From Takakia lepidozioides (lineage: Eukaryota; Plantae; Bryophyta): 64,000 nt of DNA. Both the position numbers and the translations under genes were made by a program. Position 1 is the first letter of the stretch. Every line of letters starts with the position of its first letter. Below the pieces are notes generated by a model. That model had not been told where the DNA came from, did not search any database, and was given only the letters and a program-made list of their open reading frames with translations. The stretch covers positions 42,904,001 through 42,968,000 of the forward strand of contig CM060733.1 in assembly GCA_030704615.1 (NCBI GenBank). The letters run 5' to 3'. Positions 14,253 through 40,896 of this stretch are shown piece after piece.

Positions 14253-16451
14253 ACAAGGAGTACATCCACAGATTTGTCTCTCATATAGACCAGCACAGGT
14301 TCTAGAAACAGAATTGTGGATCTTTCATGACACACTCACACTCTAAAAATTCCATAGATTTTTAGCAGAGTCCTAGATAGGTAGATATCCCCTTTCTGCA
14401 GCTATCCCCCCAAAAACTGAGTCAAACAGAGCCCATATGACAAAGATATGACCAATTAGGCTCTAAATCATTCGAATTAGATCAAAAAGGTTTTTTTTTT
14501 TTTTTTTAACACCAAAACGTTCTCGCCATTAAAAACTGTTACCATGTTATCTACGGGTTGATCTGTCGGATAAGTGATATCCACACTTGTGCCCTCCGTT
14601 CCCTGCAGTTTCCCGATTTTCCATCTGAACAGCCCGTCTCGAGTTCTCCACACATGGGCGGGTCTTGGGGAATTACGATGAATACAGTGGCACGCTGAAG
14701 CTCAACAGCAGGTAGACAATGTGTCCGTTAATGTAAAGAGCCTGGCAGATCAACAGTTTGAAATGATCAATGCTTCATCTCCTGTTATGCCATTCGCATC
14801 AGCCTGCCGTAGATTGTCTGTCAACCAATATCCGAGTTCAATTGTCCAAGCAGAAATCTACTAGAAATCTACCAACCGGCTACTGATTCCATAAATACTG
14901 GCAACTCCCATTCCGGATCTGTACTCAATGGATCAGTATAGAGTGGCTGCCCTTAGGGCGCGCTTCATCCCAACCAGGGTAATCTGCACTGAAGCCGAGA
15001 TGACACTTGAAGCGGCTGCTTCCACAATGCTCCCTCTTTGGTGCATTCATCGTGCTAATCTAGCACTGCCCAAACCACGCCACAACTCTCGTTGGTGCAG
15101 GAAGTATGGCTGCCGCATTGCAGGTCTCGGGTCAGGCTCTCCATATCCTAGGCGTGCATATTGCTGCTGATATTGGGGCTGCCTTCAAATTGACTGCCAA
15201 TAGGCCCGAACCTGTTTCATTAAAACCGAGACTGTCGAATTTCCGTCCAAAAAATGCTAGTGGGTATTTGCCATGACAGGCACCTGACAATGTATGAAAG
15301 CCCACCATAAAATCCGAATATCTTCAATCAGAAGTTGGAATTCGTAATGGCCTCCATTCTGGTCTGTTTCATCGCCCCTTTGGCCTGCTTCATGATCAGC
15401 TCCTACGCTAACTCAATTTTCCCACGGATTGTAATAGATCCAACTCTTTTCTTAGAGTTCAAGAGGGTTCAAAAGAGGGGCCTCTTCGGCTAGCTGACAA
15501 CAGGCATGTGCCCATTGATACTCCGGTCAAGAGTAACACCTGAAAAGCTGAATTTGGTAGATCCTAAGTACTTTACATTCCAGTTTTCTCGTTAAGTAAC
15601 CTGCAGTACTCATACATAATCGACTAACCGTAATAAGGAGCTTAAGGAAGTCCTGGTGGATCAGGAGGCGGGGGCGAGGGAGGTGATGGACAGCACCTTA
15701 ATTACGCACTTGCTAGAAAATCTAGCCTGACCCCGTCCATCCATTTGCTTGCTTCCTCGTGATGTGCAGCCAGACAACCTCACATCAACCAGCCCACAAC
15801 CACTCCTTCATGGTGGCTGGACTATAGTCGCACACCGACTTCCCAACCATTGCTAGTAACCATTCCACATGAAAGCCAACGACGGCACAATCTGCCTTCA
15901 TGCCAGCCTGTCCCTCCTCGCTGACCAAGAAAACCAACGATAGCCAGCCAACTTCTCAACTCGGCCTTTACTGATTGCACACCATGATATATGCCATGAA
16001 CAACTTCACCAAATCGTTTGTCATCAGTACCGATATACCATTGGCACGACGACTTGTAGACATGAGCCCATCAACCAGTCCAACACCTTGGCTGCTCACT
16101 ATGTGCAGGTCTGAAACCATCAGTCTGCTCAGGAATTACCTATAGCATGGTATTTTTATCTCTGCAGCTGAAGTCGAAGACCACGGTCCACCTACTCGCG
16201 TAACCAGCTGCACCTCCGTTTCTAACCACCAAGACAATGAAGGCTTGCATCCCAGCCTTGCGAGACAACAATAATGCTGATCGTTTCACCATGCTCGGCT
16301 CTCAATCTGCCGCTCAGCCAGTGACCGTTATAAAGGGAGAATACCCATGCACTTTTGTGTTACCGCTTTCAACACACACAAAATCCACAAGTGCTAAAAA
16401 CTAATTAAGCTCACATCTTGCACTCACAGATGCAAACTGATCTCTCTCGAG

Positions 16452-16807
16452 TGATAAACAAAGCTAAAAATGACACACACTCCCAACACAAGAAATATGA
16501 AATCCATCGCTATCACTCATTGAAACAGAAGTCGAGCCAGGAGCACCCCAAGCTATGGGGACTCCACCCCACAACAACCTGTACCCCTACATAAGCACAC
16601 TCAAACCTAAACGATGCAGGAGCTCGGTCGCGCAGGCTCAACTCGAGAGAGATGAGCCACGCGACCGCCGCTCTCGTGAAGATAAGGCCGTTCAGGTGTC
16701 AAACTAAACTTGACACCTGATTTAACACTTGACCTAAATCCAAGTGTTAAATACAAATAACTAGTTTTATGCTAGCTGTTTTCACACTGTGCTTATTTAA
16801 CTTGACA
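16452..16807 (-). repeat. 356-bp hairpin-rich repeat, copy 2 (inverted)
   Basis: tgataaacaaagc...atttaacttgaca is the reverse complement of 7738-8093. Confidence 0.9.
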
Positions 16808-18530: not shown

Positions 18531-19096
18531 TGCCCTCTTCTACAGCTGGGCACAGGGAGTGTCGTTGAGGCTGAAAAGGGGAAATTTGACCAGGTCATAT
18601 CCGTTTGTGTTACTTCGAAGGTGTGGGCCAGCCTGCCAGAAGGTCAAAACAGGTGCATGCTGACATATGAAAGTCTGGCGTCGTGGAGATTGTTGGCTGT
18701 GAGGTGGGGATGGGGTTATCATCTTTCCTGGTAAATGAAGATATGATTGACATATCTCCTCTCCCATAAACTGTCACATTTCCTATAGGAAGTTCTTGTG
18801 ACGCCCTTGACATGCTGTTGATGTGAATGAAAGCAGGCTGCAGTAGCAACAATGGAGAATTCAGGGTGTTTGGATTGGGGCAGAGCATACCATGGAAGAG
18901 AACAAGGGGCCCAATAGTTCGTGCAGTTGGGGGAGTTGATGTATGTACTTCCCCACACGGCCTTTGCCTCTCTTCACCATCTGTACCGAAGGTGCATAGA
19001 TGGAACAAATCTCCAGTCTTTTGGTGTGCTCTTGTAATTTTGATATGCCCATAGACCCACTTCTCTCTCCTGTCTGTCTTGAGTTCCCCAACAAAA

Positions 19097-22000
19097 ATGA
19101 GTTCCCCTCGCCCATGCGGAGGACTTCCAATTAATCACCCCTATAGACAGAACAACCGGGATGACAGGTTGTGGGAAAGAGAAGTGGCACGTGCCCGAGC
19201 CCTTGGGCTTTCAAGGATGCCATGCCCATGTGAACGTTGTTTGGGCACTACAAGTAGATCTGAGGACGGTGTGCGCACACATCTCCTTCACCACAAAAGA
19301 CATGAAGCATTTCGGGTGTGGATTGGAGATGGACCTGCAGACGAAGACGATGCGGAGTGGGCACAATTGGACAATGCACACCCCCGAGGGAGCCATACAG
19401 ACAGGCCAGACGAGGACTATGTCATGGGTGCAGGACAGGAACCAGGCATGGATGGAGGGGTGGAGATTACTCGAATGTTGCAGGAAGCATTCCACATCAT
19501 GGACGATGCTGAAGAGGGGGACGGCGCTGCGACAACTGGGGATGGTGATGACGCAGGAAATGAAGGCATTCACGTGGGGGAAGGCGTGGAAGGAGGTGGA
19601 GATGGAAATGAGAATTCTGCACACATGACACTAGAAGAAGCATGTGTGCCACTGTACGAGGGATGCAAATCCACAAAGCTTGCTGCCAGCATGCTGTTGA
19701 TGAACCTGTGCACAACCCACGGTGTGTCAGACCATTTTGTGGACGAGTTGTTCTCTTTGCTTCGGCTGAACTTGCTTCCACAACCAAATGAAATGCCAAA
19801 AAGCTGTCACATGGCCAACAAAATGATTGGGAAGCTCGGCCTCAACTACGTGAAAATACATGCATGTCCAAAAACATGTACTTTTCAGAAGAGAGTACAA
19901 GGACGCTATGGAGTGCCCCAAATGCGGTGCAGCCCGATACCATGATGTGGGCAGGTTACAACAGCCAGCCAAGGTGTTGAGGCACTTTCCCCGCATCCCC
20001 CGTCTATTACGAATGTACAAATGCAAGACCATTAGTGAGCTCATGACTTGGCATTCCAGGAATGCCTCAAACGATGGTTTGGTAAGGCATGTCCCAGATT
20101 GGAAGCATATAGATGCAACTTGGCCCGATTTCGCCGAGGACCCACGCAATGTGCGATTGGCTGTATCTACGGATGGAGTAAACCCAAACGGATCAAAGAG
20201 TTGCACATGGTCCACATGGCCCGTGCAGTTGGTGGCATACAACCTGCCACCATGGTTGACAACAAAGAAATTCTTTGTCATGTTGTCTCTCTTGATTCCA
20301 GGCAAGGAGTCCGTGACAAATGCAAACATAGATGTGTATTTGCAACCATTGATTGAAGAGCTACAGGAACTATGGATTGGAGTTGAAGCTTACGACATTT
20401 TGAAACCAGTAGGGCAACGGAGTTTCACCCTCCGTGCCATACTCATGTGGTCAATCCACGATTTCCCCGCATATGGCCTTGTTGCGGGTTGCAAGACAAA
20501 GGGCTACAAAGGGTGCCCCATTTGTGGGCCCTATGTGGATTCACGGCACTCAAAGCCATTAGGGAAGACAATATACATGGGGCATCGACGTTACCTTGCA
20601 AGAAACCACCCCTACCAACGAGCAGGCCGGCACTTCAATGGATGTGTTGAAAAGAGAATGGCACCAAATGTTGTGACACCGGAGGAGACATTGCAATTTG
20701 CAAAGGAGAAAGAGGCGTTCATGGAGATTGGAGGGAGAGAAGGAAGTAGTGCGGATCCAGCCATGTCGCACGGGGTGAAGCGCCGGACAATCCTTTGGGA
20801 TTTGCCATACTGGAAGGTGCATGAATCCCCCCCCCCCCAATTCACTCACTTTCTTTCACATTGTGCTTCCTGGAATTACCTTTACTGTCAGGAGTCCTTC
20901 CACCAACTCCTAAGTCAGTGTAACTACTATGCAGTAGATGTTGAAGTCGTACACCTCACCGTGTAGAGGATCGTGCAGTTGTTGAAAGCAGAATGTAGTA
21001 ACATGGACAACTTCTGCCACATATTCTACTATTTTTGCCCATAGAACTTGGTCTCATGGGAGGACATTTGGCATTTCAGAACCTCTTGCAGCGGTACCTC
21101 CTGGACCCCATGCATTGTGAGAAGAACTTCTACGAGAACATTCTGAAGACTATCTTTGGGGAGAAGGATACGATAAACGTACAAAAGAACATGGAGATTG
21201 AAGGGAACGGTCACATCTGTGGCTAAGACCTGATCCAAATAGACCAGGCAAAGTGCTCATGCCAGCAGCATCATACGTCCTGACCAAATCAGAGCAAGAG
21301 GAATTTTTGAAGACATTGGGAGCCATGAAAGTGCCAACCGGATTCTCGGGTGCTTTCCAAAAGCATGCCATAAACAAGAAATGGTCGGGGATGAAGTCAC
21401 ATGATCTACACGTGATGATGCAGCAGATTTTGCCAGTGTGCATTCGGGGTACGATGGCGTCGGGTCCTCGAACAGCCATAATGCGTGTAAGTCGAGTGTT
21501 TAGGAAGATTTGTGCGAAGGTGTGGGATCCGAGGGACATTACATCGCTGCATGAGGATGTGGCTGTGACCCTATGTTTGCTGGAGAAAGAATTCCCTCCA
21601 TCATTCTTTGACGTCATGACGCACTTGCTAATGCATCTTGTAGAGGAGCTGCATGTGTGTGGGCCCGTAGCCAGCCGTTGGATGTACCCCATGGAGAGGT
21701 ACATCAAGGATCTGAAGGGGTATGTACGCAACATGGCACGGCCAGAGGGGAGTATGGCGGAGGGCTACATCCGCGACGAAGCCCTGGGCTTCATGACAGA
21801 GTATATGTCTTCATTTGATGCAATACAACGACGGGTGTGGGACGAGAACGAGGAAGAAGGAGTTGTAGGCGAGGTCCTAGAAGGTGGTGGAACAAAGCGT
21901 GCCATGAGCCCGCGCCTTCGGGATGTGGCACATGATTATGTACTGAACAACACAACAACCATGACACCATGGAGACAGTGGGTGTAAACTTTACATCCCT

Positions 22001-23155
22001 CCTGTGCTATTCTTAATGGTCTTTGTATGCATGAATTACATATATATTGTCACAAGTCATCAGCCACTATGGGAGTGGGATCGTGTACTAACAGGGTGCT
22101 TCAGACGACAACAGAGGGTGTTTCGTAGTTGGTGTTGTTGCTTGCAAGTGATCATGAAGTAGGCTGCATCACTACAATGTGCTTGAAAGGACACACTCTA
22201 CATGTGGCATGCATGTACAGTACGGTGTTGGTCAGGGGGACTGAGTTGCAGCTTCTATTTGGTTTCTGCCAGAAAATACGCAGCAGAGAAGGTCCGCCTG
22301 AAAACGGAACGGAGAGCATTTGCAAAAGCATGGTGGAGGGGCGGTCGTAGGCGCAGATCCCCGGTGGAGTACCCGACAACAATGGAGGAGCTGCAGCCCT
22401 TTACAGTGTGGGTCAGATCTGCAATTGCAGTGTACGCATCAGAGAACGACCCAGATGAGGGCATGGTGAGTCTGTCATTCCCCCCAGGGCTGATTGCCAC
22501 TTCGTACCGGTCAATGAAAGCATATGGCAATCACTATAGAGTGGACGATGCCAACACCAGCCTCCTGGTGACTTATGACAGCGGAGTGGCATCATTTTTT
22601 GAACAAGAGAGTAGGAGCTGTGCACGAGATCGGAATCCAATTTCATGCCATGTGCAATATGTAGGAGTGATCAAAGAGATCCTTAAACTAGACTATGGTC
22701 TTGTGAAGCCAATTCTATTCCGTTGTTCTTGGGTAAAAGCCAATATGGTAGGAGAGAATGCCACCATGAAACGGGATGAGTACGGGTTCCTCCTTGCTGA
22801 TTTCAGAAAAATGCTACCACAAGATGAAGAGCCATTCATCTTCCCATCGCAAGTTGAGCAAGTTTTCTTTTCAGATGACATCCATGCGCCGGGATGGAAG
22901 GTGGTTCTTCACAAGGACCCCCGGGCCAAACGAGTCATTGCCGACGTCCATGATCTGGACCTAGGGGAGAATGCCGACCACGAGGGTCTGAGGGAACCAC
23001 AAAATCTACCAGATACGGCCGAACCAGTCTCTTTGGAAGGAGCAGTTACCTTTAATGAGGAAGACATTCCAGGGTTGGTAATTACCGCCAGGCAAATTGC
23101 AGATGTGGGTAGTGAAGGGGAAGATTATTTGGATACGGATAGTGAGCCCAGCTGA
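19097..23155 (+). mobile_element. CACTA/En-Spm TnpD transposase gene (Transposase_21, DUF4218- and DUF4216-like regions), with introns and frameshifts
   Basis: CPCERC; IHACP; RNVRLAVSTDGVNP; STWPV; LIPG; DVYLQPLIEEL; IHDFPAYG; DPMHCEKN; GMKSHD; RWMYPMER; RPEGSMAEGY; DSGV...YVGVIKEI...FRCSWV...EPFIFPSQVEQVFF. Confidence 0.92.
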
Positions 23156-23749
23156 ATCTCAGTGTCCATTAAGCCAGCAGCTCATATACGAGAGCTATGC
23201 TAAGGACTCTTACTGTCCTTAGAACCCATTTTGTATAGTCCTGCTTATAAGCAAGGGCGAAACAGTTAATAGTATCGATAATGTATGGGTATGTGGTCAC
23301 TGATTATCTTGTGAACAAACCTTTTTTTGTTCTGCCCATATTGTTTCTGGCATGTGAGGAGAGGATCGTCTTCATGTACGGGAAGTAGACGTGAATGTGT
23401 GCATGCATTTTCTGGCCCATCTGCATGCTTTCCAAGAACAAAGACCAGTGGAATGGGGGGTGTCTCCAAAGGAGCAGGACCGAACGACACCTTTTTGTGC
23501 TTCCCTTGCTTTCCTTCTCACCGTTGTTCCATTCTCCCACCTGCCCAACAGCAGCACTCTCGAAGCAATAGCATGACATATGTTCGCACATGGTCTTCTT
23601 CACCAGTGAATGAGCTTTTATGCTACATGTACTGCCCCGTCCACATTAACGTTGATCCCTACAAGCACTTGGCAAGACACCCCAGAGCCGCAAATCCAGT
23701 AACCACCACAAACACATCTAACTGATTGTAGTGACACGAGAATAGCTCA

Positions 23750-26410
23750 CTTGTAGAGGAATTGAACCTCCAGCCAAATGAATGGCTCTGCCCCTTGTAG
23801 CACAAGTGCGATGCAAAAACAAGGTGAGTACAAAATGAAGAAGTACTTACGAGGTCCCCATCCCTGGGATGGGCTCCCACTTCTGCTCTGGAACTGTGCA
23901 GGCCTGAGTAGCACCAAATTGCATGAATCCTAAGCCTGAATGTCAAATGCAGGTTTATGTCGCGATGTAGCACGCCATCTTCTTACTTGTAGTTTCCAGT
24001 TTCACTGGTGTCACATTTGCCTTCAAGTCAACATCAAAATTAAGTCCACCTATGCGCAAATCGCAGAATCTCTCATGACACCATCTGCGTATCGAAAAAC
24101 TGGTTTGGCATGATATAATTGTAGTTCACAACCTTAATGAACGCTTTCAGCCTTTACCTCTCCGTGCGCTCCATCGTGCCTCCATCCAGCACATTCTGTA
24201 AATGTTGAATGACCAAGAACCCGATGTCACACCGTTATGAGAAGCCACTACGCGCGCTCACAGTATACGAAGGCCTTGCCGTGTCAGGATTTGCATTCCC
24301 ACGTCCCGCCATGTCCGACGCAGCACTTGCATCCTTGCCAGACAGGCCAGGTGGAGGCAGCATGTGTTAAAATATCTATTCCCCCAAGGCCACATTTTGT
24401 TTACCTCTTTTTGTGAAAGCCACGTCAGCAAATGTGCTGCCGAGTCATGGGTGCAATGAATGCGCAGTGGTTCATGGAGTCGTTGAATCGACTACATATT
24501 CACTTTAATGAATAAATATCTCTATTCCATTAATCGAATTAGGAATGAAAATTTGTAGTCGCATGTGCAGTAATTACAACCACTTGCAATTTTGGCTTTT
24601 TCAAATTTTGTCTGTTTCGACTCTCCAGTAGTCCCGTTTACTACCAAGTGGTTCCCGGAGTTGTCGTGGACATGCAGTCGATTCGAAAAAGACACGAATG
24701 CTTCTAGTGCCTGAGCCGAACACAATGCAAACAGCATTGAAATTCGCTTGAGCACTGTCGGCCATAAAACCAGCGAAATTTGGGGATGGGACACCATGAG
24801 ATGCCATCACGCGAATGAGACATCTCCACATAAGCTGCTGCAACTCCGCATCCTCCGATTGCATGTCACACACTGCAATAGACATGACTCGCTGGTAGAA
24901 AGGATCGTAAACATGGCACGCCATTGTTGTCCAATCTTTCACTCGTTTGACGTTATCAAACATAAGGAAACAGTTCTGCAGATCGTCATCTTTTTGCATG
25001 CGCTTGACAAGGCTCACTCCGCTGCCCTCCCCTGCTGTCGACATTTTGAAATTATACACTTTGTTGGATCTTTGACTTGGGAACACGCTGTCTTGAATGT
25101 AGTCGTACATGCTTCGAGATTTCAATTCCAAAATGTTATCAATATACCCTCTGTTTGCAGAGCCCATCCTCAATGCATTCACCTGGTTTCTAATGTTTGG
25201 TGAGCTCAAGGTTGAGAAGTGATCCATAACATTGTCCAAGGCATGCCCGTCCAGCTTCTTGCCCACAGAGTCCCCTACACTTAGAATATGGCTTTCCAGG
25301 AAACTCTTGCTTGCTCCAAGCACAATTGCGGAGGTGGTGGCTGTTGGATTGCTCTCATACTCCTGTCTTATCAATTTGGACATTGTTTGAACACTCTCCC
25401 TGCAATCCCCCTTCGCCACAGGATGGTTGTGGAATCCGAAATGTACACAGGCTCTAGTCATGTTTTTCAAACGGTGAACAACATAGTACTTGCGTGCTGC
25501 ACACACTGCCAGACATAAAGACGCTTGTTTGCAGAACTTGCAAACGAAAGTGTTGGAACTTGGAGGTGCCTCACCGGGTTTGAATGGATTTTCGGCGACA
25601 CCCTCTCACTCGCACTGGTTGTGAACCTTGAACCGTTGGAAATGCCTACAATTCAAATTCTCGCACATGAGGTGCCCATTCCACAGGCTTGTCCGGAAGA
25701 CGAGGTTGTCATGACTTTGAATATTGGATGTCTTTGTTCTGCACCACGGGTGTCCATCTCCTCTCTTATCCATTCCCTGCATGAGGCTAGTAACGGGTCC
25801 ATCCTGCCCAGGTGGAGGTAGCTCGAAGACGACATCCCCATCATAAGCATTTGGCAGGAACTCCACACACTCAGTAGGGACTGTCTCCCAGTCAATCCCC
25901 CGCAATTCACTCTGGAAACCGGGCATTCCTCCCATTGACTTCAGTTTAGGAATGACACTGATGAGGTGTGTCACTTCCGGTTTGACGACAGGCGGTGTTT
26001 GCACATAAATTGGGATGTTGGGAATGTCCTCGGAGGAGGAGTCTGAGAACTCAACTATTGGGGTGGAAGTAGTGGTCTCCGCCTTCACGACGTTATTCAG
26101 AACCAGCTGTTACCGGGGAGACATACGAACCATTGGACTGCCGCCGAGGAGCTCCGATGACCCTGTATCTTCCTGGAGGCACTCTCCACTGACTCACAAG
26201 AGAATTATCATCGAATTTCTGAAATGAGTACTTGATCAACTTCCCATGCACATCGTAGACCTCTTTTTCGAGGAAAACAGTGCCAATCTGGTACTCGAAA
26301 CGCGTTTCCAGGAGATGCTCCTGCGCAATTGCGTAACCATTGGAATCAGTATCCTTCGAGAAAGAGACAGGCTTCTCCGTAGAGTAAAACTCCGCTTTAG
26401 CCAAACCCAT
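23750..26410 (-). mobile_element. Mutator-like DDE transposase pseudogene with N-terminal Zn-binding (WRKY/GCM-like) and C-terminal SWIM-like remnants
   Basis: ORFs 26093-26410, 25606-26088 and 24601-25506: CENLNC...CKFC...CAARK...HFGFHNHP; LMFDNVKRV...VCDMQSED...FMADSAQANFNAV; FCTHLVF near 23830. Confidence 0.65.
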
Positions 26411-27080
26411 GGTGGAGGACGACTAATTCCAAGGTAGAAGGAGCTCGAAAGTGGAGAGGCCCAAGACTCCCGTGGATATCTTTCATCAATACATGACAGA
26501 CTCCTTGAAGAACAGTTGTGTAAACAGTTGCTAAAACAGATGTGAAACAGTTATGTGCCTGCCCATACCTAGTGCAAAAGACGGCTAAGCCGGAAAATCT
26601 GGGATATGTAATGTTTTCAGGGCCCAGACATTGCATTCATAGCACGGCTGCCAGAATGAGTGCAGAACCAATGAGAAGTTCTGAACCGCCGGAATGCGAA
26701 AATCAACTTGCACATGTATGGACATCAAATCCAGGGTATGGCCATATAGACATAAGAGGTGACAGCGTCCAGTGCAGAATGCACAAATGTTTCTGTGCTA
26801 CGTGGACACGTGTGAGGTGAACCCATGCATAACCGTCGCGAGCGTTGCCACGCCTGCATCCCCTCGCACAACGTTTTTGGGCCGAGCAGACCCTCATTTT
26901 CAAGCTGGAGACTAGTAGGAGACTCAGTTCCCACCGAGAGAGCGGCAGGCGTAGAAGGCAGTTTTTTTTTTTCACCGCAGCGCGAGAGAGGAAGAGGGCG
27001 AGAGAGAGAATGAGAGGTCGCAAGCTCAAGTTGACGCTGCAAGAGATAGCAGAGGAGAGTTTGGCCCTGGAGCAGAACAC

Positions 27081-29590
27081 ATGACGGCGCAGGACCAGGT
27101 GGTCGGAGCTGCTGAAGGAGGGGATGAAATACCATCAAATAGCGACACAGAGGATATGGACACAGAGGAGCCCGACGCTGTTGCTAAGGAGCCCACGCCA
27201 AAGGGGAAGAGTGTTGTTGAGAAGGAGGCGACTCCATAGAGGAAGCAGGCTGCGCAGACCTCCATTGCCGCTGCAACCAAGGCTTCAGGGAGTGCACCCC
27301 CGAAAGCACCGCATGTTATGATCTTCCTTCCTGTATTCTGCTGCAGTTTGAAGGGCATGAAATTGCGTGCGCTGACGCATGCAATTTCATGCCCTGCATT
27401 ATTGTCTTTTTCCACTTCAGAGTGGAGTGATGGACATCAACGTGGGCTACACAACAGGGCCTTTGAGAGCACCTCCTGAAAATTGCGTGCGTCAACGCAC
27501 GCAGTTTCTGGAGGTGCTCTCAAAGCCACTTTCTGCACTCAACATCTCTAAATGGAGCCATCAATAGAGGGAGATGGGCTGCATTAAAGAGATCTAAAAG
27601 GTCGAATGTGTGAGCACAAGAAGATCGTCTTAAATCCACGAGAGACACTTCAGAGAACCCACCGAAATTATGTGCGTTGACACACACAATCTCTGGGTTA
27701 GTACTTAAGCACAGTCTCTTGCGTATGGGTCTCTCATTTCTGAAAACAATGCACATGCATAGTCTGTAGAGGCATAAAAAATGTGTGCGTCAATGCACTC
27801 AATTTGTGACATTGCTTTTACATGGAGATTTTTTCTATTTCATTGCAGGCAAAGAAAAGGAGAGGTGTTCCCCTGGAGATGGATGAAGACGAAGAGCACG
27901 AACTGGTTGTTGTAGAGGAGGAAGACGATGGCAGGCCATACCATGACAAGGCAAAAGATTTGTTGTCGTTCTCGAAAGTGAACTCTGCCCAAGTCATCAA
28001 GGCCATGGGCGTTCCTGGGGGTAAATTAATGATCCCACTGTGCAGGTTGATCTCCATGCCGTTCGTCCGACCAGCACTCACGAATGACATTGCAAAGCTG
28101 GAACAAGATTTTTGCCATGGCTACATAGAGGGTCAGTCTGTGTTTTACGTCTCGTTGGGAGACGCCAATGGCAGGGAAGTCTTAGTAGATGAGACCATTG
28201 TTGGAGGCCGGGATCCAATTTGGCGACGTATCAACGAGGAGTTTGAATCAAGCATTTGCAAGAGGCTTGTTACACAGGCATTCTCAGGCAAGATGTTCCA
28301 TGTCTGGGATGGCAACCACCGATTGCTAGCCTGGCAGAACATGATATTGAGGTATCATAGCACTGAGGAGGAGTGACACTATTGTGTGGCCTCCATGGTG
28401 CTGGATCCCAAGGGAAACATCACTGCGCTCTTGACAGCAATGCATGACGTGAACAAGTAAGTGTCTTTCCTGAAATAACTCGGTTCTTTCCCTCATGTGT
28501 TTGGGAGTCAAATCGGACATGTCATGACATACCACTGCTTGTGGCAGGGGAACTGAAACCGCCCATGTTACAACAAACCTGGTACACACCCTGTTCAGGA
28601 TCTAGAATATTGGCCAAATGCCCCTCAGCACATTCAAGAGCATCCTCAGTCCAGAAAGCTTCGTGAAATGCCAGACCTCCAAAACTTTGGACACATGGTA
28701 CAAGCTGACAAGGGGAGCATTCATGGAATACATGTACACGGTTAGTATATCATCACCTAACACTTCCATATTCTAGTACAATTCAAATTATTCTTCTATC
28801 TAATTTTGGATTGGTTTTTGTAGCAAGAGATAGCGGAGGCTGGGGAGAGGGCCAAAATAGAGTACTACTTCAAAACCCCCGAGGGGATAAGAACATCGAA
28901 AGGAGTGGCTGAAGCAATGAAGTTAAAGATGAATGAGACTCGGAAGAAGATCATGAGCGCCTTTGTGAAACAGCTGAGAATGGCAGACCCTGCCTTTGGG
29001 CCTCAATTCTTGAATGAGGTGAGGAACCACTGGAACAACAATACGAAGCCAGAGATGACACGGGAAAAGCTGCATCGTTTGTCAACTGCAGTGGTGGATT
29101 CCGAGCAGAAAGTGAAATGGTTGGAGATTTGGAATTCTGACTCAAAAGTGAAGGACACATATTGCTTCCCAAGGGGGGAAAGAGACAAAAATACTGGCCA
29201 CATCAGGCCATTCAGCGATCAAGTTTTCGATACATGGCTACACAAAGCCACGTACTGGAGCCAGGTAATGTTGTGGACTGCCATATGTTGAATTTACAAA
29301 AGAATCTTCCCTAGTATGGACTTTAACGTTTGTATTCTGTCTGTTCACAGATTGAAGCTCGTGCGAACCAGGTGCTGGAGAAGCAGCTACATGCTTACAA
29401 GATAACGATGACCTTGCCCGAAGATACTATGGAGGATTACTTGAGACAGTGGAAGGCGACAGCGTGGAGTAACTGTTTCTTCAGAGAGTTCGCCAAGGAG
29501 GGGGGCATATCCCAGACAAAAGAGTTTGAGCAGCAGTTCGGAGCCGAAGGAGCCATGAAAAGGGTCCTGTACTTGGTGGATGTGGCACGG
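27081..29590 (+). pseudogene. multi-exon gene with a ParB/Srx-like domain, 3'-truncated
   Basis: ORF 27822-28376 IPLCRL...VRPAL..DIAKL...FHVWDGNHRLLAW. Further exons 28905-29265 and 29351-29590 have GT-AG borders. Several premature stops. Confidence 0.6.
27359..27806. repeat. four copies of a ~30-bp palindrome, consensus GAAATTGCGTGCG-T(TG/CA)A-CGCACGCAATTTC
   Basis: Copies at 27359-27388, 27478-27508, 27664-27693 and ~27777-27806. Confidence 0.8.
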
Positions 29591-29689
29591 TTGTCCAAAA
29601 TTATGCAATTTTTACTAGACGGGGTTTTTTTTTTTTTTTTTGGAAAAAGTCAACGGACCCCCGCGGGCCCTTAAAGGTTAATGTGGGTG

Positions 29690-30700
29690 CATATATGAAT
29701 GGGAAAACGAGTGCTTTGGTAAGGCGAGTGATTGATACTAATTCGGTTGAACTAGATGTTGTGTCTCGAAATGCCTTAACTGTAGAATATACGCAACATG
29801 GGTGTGGGATTGAGACTTTCGATACTTATGAACAAATGGTGCGGTAAGGGTTTCAGCCCAACCACATCATGTCGGTTTTCATTTGCAATGTGTGGGCAAG
29901 TTGTGCGGCCTTCGAGAAGGGCAAAGATATCCATGATGACATCTTCAATTTTCTGAATCTTTCCATACTTGACATGTACCCCAAATGTGGGTGCCAACGA
30001 AGATGCAAATCGAGTGTTTGACACTATGGCTGAATTAGACATTGTGTCTTCGAGTGCCATGACTGTATGATATGCCCAACCGCGTGGATGTAGGATTGAA
30101 GCTTTGAAGATCTACAAGCCAATGGTGGTAAGGATTTCAGCTCAACCACATCATGCATGTTGGTTTGCATTTGTAACATGTTGACAAACTAGACGAACCT
30201 AGATAATGACATAAAAAAACTCCCACGATGACATTCTCAGAGCCGACATTGGACCACCTATCATTTTTAACCCTGGTCTGCTTGACATGTATGCCAAATG
30301 TGAGTGCAAAAAGGTGCAAAGTAAGTCGTTGACAATGTGGCTGAATTAGATGTTGCACGTTTGGGAGTACCATGACTATAGGATATACACAACATGGGTG
30401 TGTGGATCAAGGCTTGGATATCTACAAGGAAATGGCACGTTAAGGGCTTCAGCCCAACTTGCACATCATGTTGGGTTTCAGTTGTAATATAATGTGGCCC
30501 TCATTTGTAGTATGTGGGCAAGTTGGGCAGCCCTGGATAAGAGCAAAGATGTCCATGGTGACAGTGTTAAAGCTCGAATTGCACCACTTGTAATTTTGAA
30601 TCCTACCCCGCTTGACATTTATGCCAAATTTAGGTGCAATAAGGATGCAAAGCGAGTATTTGACAATATGGCTGAACCATATGTTATAGGAGCATGTTAG
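29690..30700 (+). pseudogene. highly degenerate PLS-class PPR pseudogene
   Basis: Repeated remnants DMYPKCG / DMYAKC / DIYAKF...DAKRVFDNMAE, GFQPNHI, A.EKGKDIH. Confidence 0.75.
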
Positions 30701-33700
30701 ATATATATTATAATTACACTATATAGCTAGAGAAGACAATGAGGAAGGCTGGAATGGCTAAGTGCATTTTGTGAATAGTAGTCTCATATTTAAGACTCAT
30801 TGATGTACCCAGAAGTGACACTTTGTATTCATCATTGCTTTGTTGTCTCAATTCATGACAAGCACAGTCAGAGTTTTTTTTATAATTCGGAAAATAGCAC
30901 GAGTGGCTACAGAGTTTTGCAAAAATTAGGCATATATTCTGTTCATCCATTCAAATTAGGACAGAATCATCCACATCCATACTTTCATCCATTCATATCA
31001 TCCATATTGGCAAATTCATCCATAATTTTTATTTTTATTTGGAGAAATTTGGCGATTTCATCCATGAATAAACATGGAATTTGCTACGGAATATTTTTTT
31101 TCTATTTTTTGAGGTCGCCATTTGGCAAAAATTCGCCAAACAAAAAACGCTCAGCACATGTCCTCTTGTGCTAGGTTTCTCATTGTTGTGCAATCAATAT
31201 GTGATTAAGTTTTTGTCTTTTTAATGTTTAATTTCCCTGTTTTCAAACCCAAACAAAATAGACATAGTGTGTGTCATTTGTAAAGCAATAGTGTGTTGCC
31301 TAAAGAAGCTACAAAAACAAAGCTTTATTTAGCTGTTGTACAATATAAACGTGCGAAGAAATCATCGAACCGAACTGATGCAAATATCAAATTCTCGACT
31401 GCTAACAAAATGAATATATCTGTAGAAAGACCATCGTGGTAATCTCGTTCCTTGCCATGAGCACCTACACTAATAGAAATCTCATATTTTACGACTCAGT
31501 CTACGACTGGAAACCAATCATTTCAAATAGAGAGAGAAGACTTCGGCCGAAACCGGCGTAATTAAGAGTCATTTCGTCTCACGACCTGCTCCCTTTTGGG
31601 GGTGGGCCCTATAATGTAAGCAAGCTAAGCCTGCATGTGTCTAGGGGTAACCAAGGGATAGGGGTACCGAGGGAGGTTGGATTCTAGTTGCCGCTTATTA
31701 GTGATAATTGTTGTGAGGGACCGGAGCGCTATGAGGTGGATTGCCTTGAAGCATTTATGGATAGGAGAGATAGATATACTAAAGGCTTTGTGTTTTGCGA
31801 TAATACCGGCATTGTGGATGCCACCTCTAGTTCCAGCAGTGATGACGTTTAGTGGGCCGGTGACCCAACCTTGTTGGCGAATTGCGAGAATGAGCTGGGC
31901 ATATTTCTATCATTTGTCCCCGTCCTTATGCGACTTGCAAGGTATGAGTGCCAACAGCTGCAAGTTGGTTTGGACAACCCAATGGAAACGGACATTACGT
32001 TAGTTGTATCAGATTATAGTCGTTCAGATGACTGGGTGTATTTTATTGGGGAGCAGCCAGTGTGTGGAGCCTTCAAATTGACTTTTGACCAAGGGTTAGT
32101 TGGGCTTGTGACCTTATATTGTCGAATATCTTGTGATCACGTGCATCCTGCAGAAACCACTTGAAATTATTTAATGTACTTTTTGATGCAACTATCAGAA
32201 GTTTATGTGATCTGGATTGCGGAAAGTTTAGAGTTTGTAGTCATATTTACTAACAACAGCCAATTTCATATCTTCTTTGGGCTCTTTCTAACCCACCTTT
32301 CTACGATCTTCTTTAGGTGGATCGGTTTGATTTACATTTCCTTTTACTTATAGGATTTTATTTCTCCACTTGTTATTAGTTTTCTGTGGCTTGCCCGTGT
32401 CACTACATAACCTAGGTGATAGTGTCCACTTCCAACCGAAAGAAGGCATGCCATGTGACGAAGAGACACTATAACTTACGTTTACTCCCAGAGGAGTCTT
32501 CTTTCTTTCTTGTATATTGTGCCCACCCTTGAGAAGGGGCAACACCCCCATGGGGAAGAGGCTCTCATTTATGCTAGTTCTGGCTGGCGTCATAATATAT
32601 ACATATACATATATATATATTTCTCTCTCATCTGAGTCTTCATGTCTATGTCCTAAAGGGCTCATATTTGTGAAGCACCTCGCATGAGCTATTTATGCTG
32701 CGTAAATCTCTTCTTAAAAAAAGATTGAGGTTATATTTAGTCAAAACTTGAGCATTACGCTCTGTAAGCCACTGGCCTCACTATATTCCACCAAATAAGG
32801 CCACGCAAAACGCGAAACACAAAGGATTTGTTTTTGAAATTCTTTATGGGTTTATAGAGGATCTAGCAATACTTTTCTCCATCTATACAAAACATGCTTC
32901 CTACATTCCTCCAATGTCCTTGGAAACAGTTTGCACACAATTTCCAAAGAAAACCTCCGGGCCGATCCCAGATTCTCCAAAAGGGCTGTCACTAACGACC
33001 TAATAACCCATAATGTGATAACCCAATGTTTTTTTCTTTTTTCTTTTCCTTTTTTTTATAGAGAAAGGGGAGGGAAAGGGAGGAAGCCGCTAGAACTTTA
33101 TTAGGGATTATTGAAGGGAATGGCTTCTCTTGAGACGCCTGTCTCCCTGTCTTTGTTGTTTGGTATCGAAGCCGTGTCTTCTTGGGTCCAGCCTCTATGG
33201 CACTCAGCGTAAGAGGTTATTTTTCCCTCTTTGTACCTTCCTGGATATTTACATCCACCCATTTTATAAAATTCTGAGGCCTCAGTCCCTCTTCTCTAAG
33301 AAAAAAAAAAGAACAAAAAGAACAAAAAAAGAAGGTTAGTTTTTTTAAGAAAAATTAAAACCCTTACAATGTTGGGTTAATGTAATAATGATTATTACCG
33401 TGGGACACAGGTGGGAATTATTTGAAATGAGTTTTGTTGTGGCGGTCCTTGTCAAGTTGAGAAAAAAGGTCACAAGAATTGCAGTGCACACTCCCAAGAC
33501 ACTCACAAACTAAGTTATACCCCACACAATGCCAACCTAACCGGAAGCCTAAGCGCAGCACAGCACTGCACGCTCCTCAAGAGCAGCCAGCCAGAGAGAC
33601 ACAGACACACACAGCCATCACACTCACCTGCTCTGCAACACACAACACACACGCCTCTGCTGCACGCAATATATCGGAAGGAGGGGGGAGGGCACGGTGG

Positions 33701-33772: not shown

Positions 33773-34332
33773 GTCGAGGGTTGCCGTTGGCCCCGGCGCA
33801 GCCCCCGAGTGGCTATTCAACTCTGTGGCATTGCCCATCTTTGCTCTGCAAAAAACGGACTCGTGCCTGCTCCTGGACCCAGTCTCGGCCATAAAGCGGT
33901 CTGGAGGGTCTGCAGAAAGTGGCAGGGAGGCCTGGAGCTGTAGATAGTGCAGTCAGAGAGCCTGTGGAGACAAGTGCAGTTTCTTTTGGAGGATGATGGG
34001 AACAAGTCTTGCCATTTTGTGAATGGTGACAAGGTCCGATGTCCTCCGTACCTATGAAGAAGAAACAGAACGTGAGGATATGGAAGCAGGAGTTGGATAT
34101 TTCCAATCAATTTGTGGCATGAAGCAGCTGCAGGCGGGAAAAGTAAACCCTAGAAAATTCATGACGTAAAACCTGCACAAAAACTTTGGGATGGTTGCGG
34201 ATGGCAACCTAAGATAACTGTCAAGGAGGTGCAGGACAAGAGAGTTGGCGAGTGCGCAGAGAAAGTGGATTAAGTGGAGTCCTTGGGAGGAAAAAGTGGT
34301 GGCGCAAGGCTGGCGGGGGTGGGGAACGCCTG

Positions 34333-34479
34333 ATGGCGGATCCGCCCAGCGTTGGCCTACTGTTTGCTGCTTTGTGTTTGAAGCTTGATACACAGATAGT
34401 GACGCCAGAAAGGTTGTTCGCAACGATTTCAGCAATAGCTGGCCAGAGGATAGAGGACGCGGAGGGGGAAGCATGCTGA
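34333..34479 (+). promoter_or_regulatory. 48-aa upstream ORF overlapping the CCR4 start codon
   Basis: MADPPSVGLL...VTPER...AGQRIEDAEGEAC*; ends gcATGcTGA; conserved in the paralogue. Confidence 0.65.
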
Positions 34480-37400
34480 GCGTGTTACGGGTGCACCTGC
34501 CGTCCGACATTCCCATTGCGGGCTGCGAGTTGTCACCCTATGTGCTACTTCGCCGGCCTGACCTCTCCATCACAACCGACGACATCCCCGAGTCCTCACC
34601 TGTCGATGGTTACTACCTGCGCTGTAGATGGTACTCTTCTTCTCTTTCATATACGTAGCCTGCATTTACCCTCACCGCTTCTCTATGCCTTCTGGATTCC
34701 CTGCCCTTTAAACCACTTCACCGCACTTCTTCCCAGCCCATGTAGTATATAAGGGGTTCATTCCATCACCTAGACTGCGACTATGGGTGGGGGAGCCTGT
34801 AAATATTGCACTTTCACTAAGTCTAAAAAGTTGGAAAGACATGTCTTTGTAAGGACAGACTGTAGTTTTCCCCCTGAAAAGCAAGTGGAGGGTCAGGCAT
34901 TTAATTTCCAGGAGCTATTGGTTCCATTCTTGAAGCTTAACATCCACATGAGATGATATTGGGGGCTTGGGCATAAGTGCTTGACAAATGCTGTATGCTA
35001 TACTGTATGCTCAGGTATCGCATTCAGAGTGACCAGAGGATTGCAGTCTGCAGTGTCCACCCATCAGAGCCGGCCACTCTACAATGCTTGGGCTGTGTAA
35101 AGGCAAAGCTTGCGGTGGCCAAGAGCTACCACTGCACACCCAAATGCTTTTCAGATGCATGGCGACACCACCGGACCATGCATACGCGCGCGGCCAGTGC
35201 TGCGCGCGAGAATGGGGCTGAGGAGGATGATCCTGTATTTGCCCGCTTCAATACCAACTCAGGAACAATTCTTGGAGGTGCAGGTGGTGGGATAGGCTCC
35301 ATGGGCAGTGCTGTGCCACCACCTGTTGTGCTTAGCAATGGTTCTGCATTTGCTAGCCCTGCAAGAATCTCGTCATCCGATGGGAATGGGGAAACCTGGT
35401 ATGAAGTGGGGCGGGGGAAGACCTATACCCCGACAGCTGATGATGTAGGCCATGTGTTGAAGCTCGAGTGTGTTGCAGTCGATGCAAGCACTGGGCTGGG
35501 AATTACCCCAGCCAGTACGGTGCTAACATCTCGCGTCATCCCTGCTCCCTCCCCAACTCCCCGCCGCTTGATTTCAGTCAACTCCACGGATGGGGCTGCA
35601 GCAGTGGAGATGGAAGGGCGCATGGGAGTGCCGGGAACATTCACTGTTCTTTCATACAACGTGCTGGCAGACTTGTATGCCACAAGTGAGATGTACAGCT
35701 ACTGCCCACCATGGGCACTTTCATGGGCTTACCGAAGACAGAATCTGTTACGGGAGGTTGTGGGTTACCGAGCCGATATTTTGTGTCTCCAGGAGGTACC
35801 GTTCTACTTCATTCCTTGTGCAGCTCTGATTTGGCAATTTTCTTTTTGAAATGCTGGTCCTCAATTATAGGGCTCAGCTTGGGTGTTTGGTCAGCATCAT
35901 CTGGGTTACGAGAGATGGAAGGCAGATGGTCTTTAGGTCTTTTGATAATTTGCATCTTTCGTAGGTGGTTGTTTGGATGTAACCTCGTTGGTGTCTAAAA
36001 TAATGCAGGCTTAGCCCCGCTGCTCTACCTCTTGACAGTTGTCGTTTCTTTTTTCTCTTTCCTATTTTAGAAACTGGGAGATGGTAAGTTTGTTCTTTGT
36101 AGGGGAGATATTTCTTTAGGAGGAAGGATGGGGGCAGAAGGAAGTTGTGGCCAAAAATCTTAAAGTGGACAGTGTTGGGGTATTGGCAGGTGCAAAGTGA
36201 CCACTTTGAGGAATTCTTTGCTCCTGAGTTGGAAAAGCATGGCTATGCTGCTGTGTACAAGAAAAAAACCGCTGAGGTGAAGTGCTCTTTTCTCTGATGT
36301 TGTTGAGTCGAAGTCTTGATTTTCCTAATGAAGCCAACGACTAACTAGTATGGATATTTTTGTGCCTTGATATTCCATTCCTCCTCTTTTTGCATGTGAA
36401 TTGCAGTTTGAGCCTTGAGTATGGGCCTTCTGTTTTCATGTGCATGCTCGAAGCTGGGGGCCCAAGTTGAACCTCTATTATGTCTGTGTGTACTATGTGA
36501 GCATTAGGTTAAAGAGGCAATTTTTTAAAAAACTGAGGTATTATTTGGAAGGTGAAGTCGCTAATGAAAACTTTCAAAGACTGGGCTGAGGCAGACTAGT
36601 TGGGAGATAAACTCTCTTGGCAGTGAACAGAAGCTCAACACATCTGAAAGTTATAACGTATTGACCTGATTACAAGAACTAACGTATCAAAGTTTAGGTT
36701 CTGGATTTTGGTCTTCCTGATAGGAGTAATGGAATAGGTCTTCTGGAATACACCACAAACTCCCTAATGAATCCTGATTGCTCTCTCTCTCTTTCAATGA
36801 ATCCTCTCTTTGGTTGAGAAAGAAGTTCCTCACACAATGAATCCTCTCTTAAACTCTCTTTGGTTGACTGTTGCAGATGTATACAGGCACTGCTTATGCA
36901 ATTGATGGTTGTGCTACTTTTTTCCGACGCGACCGCTTCTCTTTAGTGAAAAAATACGAGGTATGTGCTCCCACCTCCTGCCAATACTCCAAGTCTTGCA
37001 TTTGGAAATTTGTCCAACCTACTTTCATGTCTATGATGAATTTTGATATAGTATCATACCCTTGAGTCATTGGATGCATCGAATTTGGATAGTGGAGAAG
37101 GATTAGGGAAATGGTAAGTTCTCTGCAAGAGAGAGCAATCTGGATTCATTGTGTAAGGAACTCCATTCTTTGAGGGTAGTGTCTCAAATAAGCCTTTGCA
37201 GTGCTGAGATGGTGTAGCCTTGTTGGCGAGCATACATATATTATTTCCTTTATGGACTCCAAGAATAGAATTTATGGACAGTCTATGCTTCAAACATAAC
37301 AGACTGACTCTCCTGTGGCTCTCCTTGTGCCAAACAATTCACATCAGCATAATGTAATCTAATACTCCAGAATCATGAGACCGGATCTGAGGATGAGTTA

Positions 37401-40400
37401 TTACATACCTGTATGTGTCCAGGTGGAGTTCAACAAAGCTGCGCAATCATTATCAGAGGCGCTTGTACCCTCTGCGTCGAAGAAGGCAGCTCTCAGTCGT
37501 CTCCTAAAGGTCTAGCCTCTCCACTTGAGCTGAGGCAGGCTCATCAATGTCTTAAAACCACTAGAGATAGATCTGCTAGCCTTGACAACTGCAGGGATCA
37601 TGAGTAGGAGTAAAGAGAGTGGGATCTTCAATAGGTCGTTGTGAGGGATACTGCATTTGCTATCGACAGTATAGCTGAGGCAATTATTATTGTGGGACAA
37701 AATGTATTTGGTTTAGGGTGGCTGTCTCTCCAAGTATGCGAGCTCTACATTTTCCCTCATAGTGCTAGCTTGCGGACAGAACCTAGTACAGCATCTCTCA
37801 TGCAGCACACCCTTTTGGCCTGTTTTTCATATTGTTGACCTGGCTCATCAATTAAGTTGTTTTGAATGCGGAGAGCTGATGTGGTTGTGGTTCATTCTGA
37901 TACAGGACAATGTAGCGTTGATAGTAGTGCTGGAGGCGCATGACACAGGAAATGGTGCCGATGCCTCACAAGCATCTGGCAAACGTCAGTTACTGTGTGT
38001 GGTGAGTGATGTCTTACCCTCTCTATCATCGTCTCTCACTTTCTCTCTGTCCACACTCAAATTCAGTTGGCATTGCAACCACACCCACATATTCACATCT
38101 GCGTAACGCAGAGGTGGAACCACTGATTAGAGTATGTAGCCAGATAAACAACAATTTCTTCGCCGAACTGTTGCGATTTCTGCAGAATTGGTACATGAAT
38201 TTGAGGCCAAGATTTATATACCCTGCAAGTCTAGGATCCCAGAGGGACTGATCAATGAGTACATTATCTGTCTCACATATTGTTTTTATGTTTTAGTCAT
38301 AGATATGCAAAATATCAATAATAAAGAAAGCACAGCCTATAGAATATGGTATTGGAGGTCCTGGAGCTGCAGAGACACCTGGTAAACTTCATGTAAGTTT
38401 CCATGTAGCTGAAAGAACAGGCATAGTGAGCTCACTGAATCAACAGGAACATCTGGTTGTATAGGTTTGTAAAGCAAAAGCTTGCAATTTATGAGATAAT
38501 TAGCAAACTTTGAGCCTTAACTGTTTGGCACATTCATGGGCAGGCTAACACCCACATCCATGCAAATCCGGAGCTCAAGGATGTCAAGCTCTGGCAGGTA
38601 TGTTGAAATTTATTCCATCTGCCGTTCCTGAGCTGCTTTAGCTAATCAGTTAAAAAAAAACAGTTGCCTCTGAGATAAGTCAGTTCTTTTGGGTGGAAAC
38701 ACTTTGTCTAGTGTAGAGGGGCCCTATCTGCATAGAAACTCTCAAAGAAGCTTTGAGTGATGCTGGTGCCATACCCTTGATGTGTGATCTACAATATATG
38801 CTTCCCCTTTGTGAATTTCATGTAGAAAGTTTCACTACAGGATCAAAATCATCAGCAGGGGGTTTGGGCTTATGAATAGCTCATTTGGTTAGCTGTGGCA
38901 AGTTGATACACCTGGTGCCTCTCCGGTGGTTGTAGTTGAAACACTACAATGAAACTCCAGTATCGTTTGTCTGATCGTAGGTTAGAGATGGACTTAAATC
39001 AGTTACTTCAGTAACATAGGACTTCAAATTAAAAGCAGATTCAATAGTCATATCCTTTTAGGATCGCCCAAGATTATCATTACAGACAAGGCCTTCACCG
39101 GCGTATTCACCTTCATGTAGGAGAGTTTGGAAGTAATTCGAGAACTCAGTGACAGTACTGCCAGTGAGCCTGCCCCATTTGTTTGTTCAGGGCCAGGTCA
39201 GGCAAGAAGGCTTAACCCATGAGTTTTATACCAACCTGTACCAACTTCACATGTAGCAATATATGTCACATGCTGCTCAAAGACAAGTGGATGAACCAGT
39301 TTGGCATGTCCTGTACAGGTACATACATTACTAAAGGGATTGGAGAAGATAGCAGCCAGTGCTGACATCCCCATGTTAGTTGCAGGCGACTTCAATTCTG
39401 TTCCTGGCAGGTCTGTGCTTCCATGCATCGCCCAACATTGTGCATGTTATCCTGCCAACCTTACTTTGAATGCATGGCGATAGAAATTTTGTCCAAATCA
39501 GCAAAAGTTGTCACCAAGACTTTCTGTAAGGGTGGGGGGTTTTCTGAGTGAGTTTTAGCTGGTTTCTCATAGTTGTGCAAGGTTCTTTTGGGACTTGATT
39601 CATGTCCTAATTCTTGGGATGTCTGGATGGAACTCCTTGAACATGGACATTGGTTATGTGGGGATTAGAGAAAGGAAATGCACATGTAGCAAAAGTGAGT
39701 GGCATCTGCGAAATGCCTAACCCCCCATTGTTTATGATATTGAGCAAGGCCAAGGCTCAGCTAATAAGGAAGGGTCACGCTGTACAGCAATATAAGTGCA
39801 GGAGTAGGTGGGTGATTACATGTTGCTGAGAATGTGAGCAATGGTGATCTGTGCTTGTAGCAGTGCCCCACATTCGTTGTTGGCAACGGGCAGGGTGGAT
39901 GCAGCGCATCCTGAGTTGGCGACTGATCCCCTGGGTATATTGCGCCCTGCAAGCAAGCTGTGCCATCAGTTACCTTTGGTTAGTCTGTCACTGGAAATAC
40001 TGCCCAGCTACTCTTGCGATGTTAGACCGATTCCTAACAAAAGATTGACTTTGTGTGCATTCTGATAGATATTTACCATTAACTCGCTTTGTTGTTTGGT
40101 TGTAGTCTGGGGGGAAGAGGTGATCGTAGCACAGACAATTTAACAAACCTGCATGGGTTGGCACATATGCAGGTGAGTGCCTACTCAGCATTTGCCAGAA
40201 TGCCGGGGGTGGGCCCGACTTTGGAGCGGCAGAGGCGGCGCATGGATGCTAACAGCAATGAGCCTCTCTTCACCAACTGCACTCGCGATTTTCTTGGCAC
40301 TCTCGACTACATCTTTTACACCGGTCAGTTTTTGCCTTGTCTGCACTGCTGCAATGAACCCTCCCTCTGCAGATTATACCTGACTTCACCTTATATCAGA

Positions 40401-40896
40401 TGATGCATTTCCTGTTTTTTCTCATTTCTCACTGACTTCTGCTCTGTGCCGTGCACCCAGTGTTTATAGTGTTTAAATGTTGAGGAGGGCACCTCAACAA
40501 TGCCTGATGCAAGAACTGTTAAAAATCTAGTTAATTTTACACGAGAACCTTTTCTAATCTTATCTCATAACCAGGAACAGTAATTTTTCAGAGTATCCCA
40601 TGAATTATGTTCCATATTTTCTTGAGTCCGATCATGGGTTTTGGGAAGAATACCTACGGTCCCTAACGTCACCACTGCCGGTTATGCTGGTTATGTAAGT
40701 TATGCTGGTTGCTAACTTGGGCTCAACATGGTCGGGTGGATGTGGAGCAGCTGACTCGCTGGCAGTTGAATCACTGTTGGAGCTGCTGGAGGAGGAGGGA
40801 CTGCGCAAGGACACAGCTTTGCCCTCCCCGGAATGGTCATCTGACCACATTGCCTTGCTGGCAGAGTTCCGTTGTAAGCCACGCACGCGCCGCTAG
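34473..40896 (+). CDS. CCR4: CCR4 deadenylase (plant CCR4-1/2 type, EEP domain), copy 1, 616 aa
   Basis: Exons 34473-34630, 35015-35795, 36190-36276, 36877-36960, 37423-37509, 37906-38001, 38544-38597, 39319-39410, 39864-39978, 40173-40323, 40751-40896 (1851 nt, all GT-AG). Motifs MLSVLRVHLPSDIP, SYNVLAD, LCLQE, ANTHI, AGDFN, TLDYIF, SSDH. Confidence 0.96.

Follow-up and report, generated by a model that had tools for sequence, protein, structure and literature searches.

A dead, probably two-gene Mutator-type transposon in Takakia

The window analysed here is a 64,000-bp stretch of Takakia lepidozioides DNA (contig CM060733.1, positions 42,904,001 to 42,968,000), rich in repeats and spliced genes, in which two genes are placed head-to-head at 24710-29575. 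This part is a dead copy, broken at two places, of what was likely a two-gene Mutator-type transposon, one gene of which codes for the transposase and the other for an accessory protein, the helper, with a predicted ParB domain and, judged from relatives, a lost methylase-like domain. That the underlying unit is a two-gene Mutator-like element (MULE) with such a helper we consider highly probable. An earlier reading made from the letters only (the sequence-only reading) had proposed a two-gene DNA transposon with an uncharacterised ParB-like accessory protein. The pairing of a MULE with a ParB-like gene is supported by the analysis below, but the accessory protein is not wholly uncharacterised, its kind having been described in algae.

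The start codons lie at 26410 (minus strand) and 27081 (plus strand), and the 670-bp spacer between them (26411-27080) is likely a shared bidirectional promoter. The minus gene is the 5′ half of a MULE transposase pseudogene (24710-26410), comprising a Cys/His-rich region and the first part of the DDE domain. Five exons remain of the plus gene. Exon 1 (27081-27315, its 3′ end being approximate) codes for an acidic low-complexity N-terminus. Exon 2 (27849-28456) codes for the predicted ParB/Srx-fold domain, with the IPLCR and VRP motifs, WDGNHR at 28305-28322 and a terminal Asn. Exons 3 (28548-28740) and 4 (28824-29264) code for a conserved middle region, and exon 5 (29351-29575) is the last to survive. 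GT-AG sites flank exons 2-4, and exons 2-5 match the loci of relatives in matching order, with up to 49% identity for exon 3 by tblastn.

Both genes are dead. The plus gene carries three in-frame stops (TAG at 27237-39, TGA at 28374-76 and TAG at 28603-05), and the minus gene a frameshift near 26100 and a TGA at 25606-08; the sequence-only reading had thus rightly called the two genes similarly decayed. The head-to-head layout, the WDGNHRL motif (28305-28325) and the truncation at ~29590 that it described were also confirmed. We place the truncation within intron 5 (29575-29650), because in the relatives exon 5 stops at the identical codon (~29575 in the window). The break is not an assembly error, since a 1404-nt contig of run X1 covers 29500-30903 with 0 differences, although this run may itself come from the source sample. 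The later exons and the methyltransferase-like domain are missing from the window, in which methyltransferase profiles gave no match. Immediately past the break lie degenerate ~310-bp repeats (29690-30700), whose translation resembles pentatricopeptide repeat (PPR) motifs.

The minus gene is a MULE-like transposase, probably interrupted by a CACTA element

The open frame at 24604-25605 of the minus gene was compared with the ESM Atlas. The first match scored 0.94, the nearest clusters were MULE transposases, 61% of the members of the first-match cluster carried PF10551 (MULE), and 10 of the 10 best family matches belonged to the MULE clan. Judged from these matches, the minus gene has a MULE-type DDE transposase. 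It shares 39-48% identity with its relatives by tblastn. Pfam gave no match on the window's own copy, and the first 105 codons had no match in any relative locus.

Homology to the relatives ends at 24712. The relatives continue into a CxFHW motif right beyond this point, and the window switches to a sequence that begins with CACTA on the minus strand at 24709. The C-terminal transposase parts of the relatives had no match in the window at E 0.05, and the 3′ half of the MULE was not found. The CACTA pentamer occurs 59 times in the window, or ~1 per 1,100 bp, and we estimate the chance of meeting it at the break at ~1 in 100 for a 10-bp window. We read this as the insertion of a CACTA element into the MULE gene, with its terminus at 24709. 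This CACTA/EnSpm element is a neighbour outside the pair (19055-24709, plus strand), with a TnpD gene at 19055-23155 (Pfam Transposase_21, DUF4218 and DUF4216) and its right terminus at 24705-24709; its left terminus was not found in the window. Hence the lower bound of 23750 that the sequence-only reading had given to the pair does not hold: because MULE homology ends where the CACTA terminus starts, 23750-24709 is most likely CACTA sequence and not Mutator.

Near-identical deep contigs of the CACTA element (19055-24709) were present in runs X1-X3, with a depth in X3 of 2447 versus 44-45 on the unique flank, and deep contigs reach from the end of TnpD into 23421-23785. This suggests many CACTA copies, although depth is not a copy number. 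On the minus strand, 11792-14091 carries a NIF/FCP1-like phosphatase frame (PF03031, E 8e-13), and the frame at 13333-14091, without a Pfam match, is presumably TnpA-like. The two frames are possibly cargo of the CACTA element.

Exon 2 of the plus gene is predicted to adopt the ParB/Srx fold

Relatives of the plus gene were collected by a profile search of 1.84 billion representatives, which gave 801 matches at E 0.001. The relatives that bear a species name belong to Riccia sorocarpa and to two species of Adiantum. Structure prediction had been proposed as a test of the ParB/Srx fold, and this fold is predicted for exon 2: the model from an 88-row alignment reached a predicted local distance difference test (pLDDT) score of 89.3, and that from a 2-row alignment only 35. 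A VIA structural search of the model among 48,161 chains returned 14 matches with Z of at least 2, the first 12 of which are of the ParB/Srx type by title or, for the untitled rows, by our own assignment. The best was KorB (Z 7.5, root-mean-square deviation 2.7, 90 aligned), followed by PadC (Z 7.3), a serine kinase (7.0) and sulfiredoxin (6.5). With Foldseek, Noc, Srx, PadC and ParB held the top ranks (best E 0.011). The nucleotide-binding motif of the ParB/Srx fold is of the DGxHR type, with an upstream Arg and a downstream Asn. The DGxHR signature noticed in the single copy proved to be a conserved (D/E)GNHR in the alignment of accessory proteins, together with the upstream Arg and the terminal Asn (R74 85%, G155 90%, N156 100%, H157 90%, R158 79% and N202 89%).

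Some results speak against the assignment of this fold. None of the 88 alignment members matched a ParB Pfam family at E 0.5; 3 of the 88 weakly matched DndB (best E 0.066); the best VIA Z, 7.5, falls short of 8, the value under which the tool advises caution; and none of the Foldseek matches in PDB or BFVD reached E 0.001. Sequence searches of PDB with P0001, P0156 and A2 gave no relevant match, and Pfam gave nothing useful on the window's own plus-gene open reading frames (ORFs). A word-index search recovered 0 of 1481 candidates as longer relatives of exon 2, and 1 of 143 as relatives near its length. No relative of the accessory gene was found among 55 candidate stretches in viral contigs or 61 in prokaryote contigs. 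A homodimer prediction for residues 70-305 of the relative P0012 scored 0.00, which carries no weight either way.

Codon divergence indicates that selection acted on the ParB domain during the life of the elements, because third positions differ more than second positions between lineages (0.63-0.69 and 0.33-0.43, respectively, for the window against four relatives). The close pair L010/L019 showed no third-position excess.

Relatives carry a methyltransferase-like tail

The lost tail of the window's gene was likely a beta-class N6/N4 DNA-methyltransferase-like domain, as judged from the relatives. In the Riccia protein P0156 (1207 aa), the ParB domain is followed by a long middle region and, at the C-terminus, by a match to PF01555 (E 5e-5); this C-terminal end is common to thirteen Riccia proteins. 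A profile of this region (A3) searched against PDB pointed to beta-class adenine methylases (5hek, E 0.0017; CcrM, E 0.37), and the nearest named clusters in the ESM Atlas were phage ParB_N + N6_N4_Mtase proteins (0.82-0.83), which are leads only. With a profile built from Riccia and Adiantum alone, the top ranks among 288 frames went to the exon that follows the ParB gene in L040-43, L010/11 and L037; with a wider, partly circular profile, a methylase-like exon was detected in 9 of the 22 metagenome locus clusters. In alignment A3 the order of motifs in the relatives is permuted, with motif IV first and the S-adenosylmethionine (SAM)-binding motif near the C-terminus; the domain itself is absent from the window.

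Several observations weigh against such a tail, or against its activity. The PF01555 match of P0156 is below the Pfam cut-off (23.7 vs 26.7 bits), and the tail is known only from relatives, the nearest of which are at most 53% identical to the window. Active enzymes have DPPY, SPPY or NPPY as motif IV, according to PMC8885841. The catalytic (D/N/S)PP(Y/F/W) was found in none of the 18 rows of A3, the nearest being DVPF in one Adiantum protein: Riccia has DLPT, DLPS, DMPS or DMPT, Adiantum DVPF or DFPI, and the metagenome loci DCPV, EVPS, EVPR or EVFS. With a non-canonical motif IV in every row of A3, methyl transfer by the tail is doubtful, and we consider it unlikely that intact copies still catalyse it. 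Two candidates for the identity of the tail were discarded. Marchantia DN4MT1 was rejected on its motif alone (TSPPY), and the chlorophyte ParB-helix-turn-helix (HTH) Dam clade is, as far as described in PMC4738411, group-2 and DpnM-related, versus a permuted tail here, so that it is set apart by description.

Intron 1 holds lineage-specific palindromes

Intron 1 of the window contains four CpG-rich palindromes of ~29-30 bp (family D9; 27349-27806, starts at 27360, 27480, 27665 and 27778). Four of the six matches to their 12-bp core in the window lie in intron 1, and 0-4 matches are expected window-wide (20 resamples). Outside the search pattern the arms of the palindromes are 70-77% alike, and the spacers 22-34%, with a background of 24%. 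In the relatives the intron-1 slot is occupied by a different palindrome in clade 1 and by a third, distinct one in clade 2. A pattern derived from L010 matched 28 times in 14,241 bp upstream versus 0 times in 56,350 bp elsewhere in the other seven clade-1 loci, and was present upstream in 5 of the 7, the exceptions L009 and L043 having lost that region. Similarly, a pattern derived from L025 matched 33 times in 17,690 bp upstream versus 22 times in 119,546 bp elsewhere in the other ten clade-2 loci, and was present upstream in 9 of the 10. Neither pattern matched upstream in the opposite clade, and the window's own pattern had 0 matches in the 21 scanned loci. In all lineages the cores vary mostly by CG to TG/CA changes, as expected if methylated CpGs decay. 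In L028, palindromic repeats resembling those of clade 2 are found a second time, past the methylase-like exons (14016-14534).

That the palindromes are binding sites of the accessory protein we hold to be somewhat more probable than the opposite, given where they recur and how they differ between lineages. The best surviving alternative, itself improbable, keeps the same two-gene MULE but takes the palindromes for self-amplifying filler of the intron and the helper for, e.g., a nucleotide-dependent transposition scaffold with a dead methylase fold. The non-canonical motif IV of all aligned copies fits this. So does clade 1, which tandemly amplifies whole 50-63-bp units (flanks 0.42-0.74 alike in L010, L012 and L020), as filler also would; this tells against binding sites, as does the partial orthology or close kinship of the scanned loci, which makes binomial p-values too strong. 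Filler would not explain, however, why the window and 6 of the 7 clade-2 arrays repeat the palindrome only, with spacers near background, or why three lineages each hold a different palindrome in the matching slot. Inverted-repeat arrays beside ParB-domain genes are, moreover, also carried by red-algal elements, as far as described in bioRxiv 2025.02.11.637652.

The divergent MULE-ParB pair recurs

The 47 metagenome loci fell into 22 clusters, or 19 after merging of orthologous pairs, and linkage was counted in the eight independent loci whose upstream flank reached 8 kb. The sequence-only reading had suggested co-occurrence of the two genes as a check, and the divergent MULE-ParB pair recurs in three of these eight: L008/24, L028/39 (inverted in L022/23) and L037. 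On the ParB tree these three occupy separate branches, and a fourth branch holds the window. At 7868-12104, L022 and L023 represent the L028 locus with the ParB-gene segment inverted, and these loci are orthologous. Pfam was run on 150 of the 161 ORFs of at least 100 aa in 22 loci, and the sole DNA transposase found was the TnpD of L009/L043. We conclude that the linkage of MULE and helper is supported but not proven, and that the limits of the element are unproven.

Much of what was found at these loci counts against a fixed two-gene unit. The MULE lies downstream on the same strand in one of the eight (L007/26), and four of the eight are without a MULE (L006, L010/11, L013-18 and L046/47). 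The MULE label is unclustered on the ParB tree; MULE and ParB identities correlate with a Spearman coefficient of 0.43 over 36 non-independent pairs; and L007 and L037 are 70% identical in ParB and 38% in MULE. No terminal inverted repeat (TIR) or 8-10-bp target-site duplication (TSD) was found in the window, where both element ends are lost, or among the five longest inverted pairs in each of four old, decayed loci.

It is most unlikely that the MULE and ParB genes are unrelated abundant repeats whose head-to-head position, in a graveyard of transposons, is a coincidence. Such an origin would agree with the four loci without a MULE, with a distance between the genes that varies from about 2 kb in the window to 4-6.6 kb in the relatives, and with the lack of shared termini among the examined loci. 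Chance would not be expected to make all three independent upstream MULEs and that of the window divergent, in three separate ParB branches, and to leave a downstream MULE in one independent locus only, once the inversion in L022/23 is discounted. Finally, the helper might be a gene of the CACTA element, placed after TnpD where TnpA would be, with the MULE as intruder; this is barely credible and was rejected. In its favour, TnpD precedes the helper on the same strand in the window and is its immediate upstream neighbour in L009 and L040-43, and red-algal EnSpm/Plavaka elements bear ParB-domain and methylase genes (bioRxiv 2025.02.11.637652), but L009 and L043 represent one orthologous event (88.5% over 5.6 kb) that cut the ParB exon and lost its upstream part, and the terminus at 24709 faces left, interrupts the MULE and lies left of both genes, which leaves the helper outside the CACTA element.

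Proposed mechanism

The preferred reading, that of a MULE with a ParB and methylase-like helper, suggests how an intact element might have worked. Both genes would be transcribed from the 670-bp spacer, and the helper would recognise the CpG-rich palindromes of its own intron 1, probably via its middle region. Bacterial ParB loads at parS and spreads from it. By analogy, the ParB domain of the helper would bind a nucleotide triphosphate and enable the protein to be loaded onto the element and to spread over it. The methylase-like domain may then modify, flip or simply bind bases at these places, and the element would in this way avoid silencing by host cytosine methylation, in the manner of VANC. 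This copy later suffered two breaks, one through the insertion of the CACTA element at 24709 and the other through a deletion within intron 5. The anti-silencing role, drawn by analogy, is tentative and somewhat less probable than its absence. A bolder version, which is decidedly unlikely, would be a widespread Mutator lineage in spore-bearing land plants with a self-applied system of the ParB/parS style, in which a nucleotide-driven clamp is loaded on the clade-specific CpG palindromes of the element's own intron and spreads from there over the element, a divergent amino-methyltransferase writes N4-methylcytosine or N6-methyladenine (4mC/6mA) or shields CpGs against silencing, and protein and sites co-evolve.

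Other features of the window

In a Gypsy-like retrotransposon at 62-7400, a reverse transcriptase (RT)-like frame is preceded by a frame for a C5 cytosine methyltransferase (PF00145, E 3e-14, 3133-3681), and an integrase-like frame is followed by a plant homeodomain (PHD) finger (6961-7389); the RT and integrase labels were read from motifs. At 7649-8179 and 16452-16807 we observed a 356-nt inverted copy (97%) and 87-nt direct repeats, possibly pieces of long terminal repeats. Two copies of a CCR4/PDE12-like gene in inverted orientation (33800-40900 and 44200-51550) are 81-95% alike in blocks, with PF03372 on the first.

Comparison with known systems

The window copy is dead and has no function of its own. 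If the proposed mechanism is true, the family would provide plants with a natural device that is loaded at specific sites and spreads DNA marks from them. With three candidate target palindromes, one per lineage, the idea of self-binding becomes testable across clades.

Among plant elements, VANC of the Arabidopsis VANDAL MULEs targets family-specific repeats in its own element, with anti-silencing shown (PMC5735166). According to bioRxiv 2025.02.11.637652, self-protection of transposons from silencing is experimentally known only from VANDAL/VANC. The present helper is likewise a MULE accessory protein, for whose supposed role VANC is the functional model, the anti-silencing effect here being only inferred. 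To our knowledge, VANC has neither a ParB nor a methylase domain.

Eukaryotic beta-class amino-methyltransferases of prokaryotic type are represented, as far as described in bioRxiv 2021.02.12.428880 and PMC8885841, by Marchantia DN4MT1 and bdelloid N4CMT. These are active host enzymes that keep (T)SPPY, unlike the present family, which has no SPPY. The term ParB is absent from both sources, and from PMC12730594. ParB-linked methylases occur in phage loci and in algae, according to PMC4738411. The phage ParB_N + N6_N4_Mtase fusions of ParB-Tls loci match the plant protein in domain order and in the beta class of the methylase, but the plant gene is split by introns and its product contains a long middle region.

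The closest parallels are algal. Sola1-1_Ec32 of Ectocarpus carries a gene for a 1104-aa protein with ParB and N4C/N6A methyltransferase domains opposite its transposase; the protein is proposed to act on the element that encodes it, through binding and modification, and comparable proteins of green and red algae are cited as well (PMC12477816). Shared with our family are a ParB-like and an N4C/N6A methyltransferase part in one protein of ~1100 aa, on the strand opposite a DNA transposase. Compared by description, our family differs in its land-plant host, Mutator-type transposase, non-canonical motif IV and sites in intron 1. In red algae, PAG2/PAG3 of Plavaka (EnSpm) and Chondrus Mutator elements comprise ParB-oxygenase and methylase-SET genes with inverted-repeat arrays (bioRxiv 2025.02.11.637652). 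In common are a ParB-like domain and a PF01555 methylase carried by transposons, arrays of inverted repeats next to the ParB gene and, as the PAG2/PAG3 cassette reportedly moves between superfamilies, a Mutator setting. PAG2/PAG3 combine ParB with a 2-oxoglutarate (2OG) oxygenase and the methylase with SET in separate genes, whereas the present helper unites ParB with the methylase-like domain in a single protein. In literature outside subscription journals and Repbase, we found no land-plant MULE with this helper, although the supplements of the algal papers may include plant members.

We conclude that: i) transposon helpers with ParB and methylase domains are already described in algae (PMC12477816), although these algal helpers are still hypothetical, and ii) the land-plant Mutator context and the clade-specific sites are new as far as our searches show and, together with the altered catalytic motif, mark the present family as a distinct form of such helpers, which it extends to land plants and to a Mutator partner.

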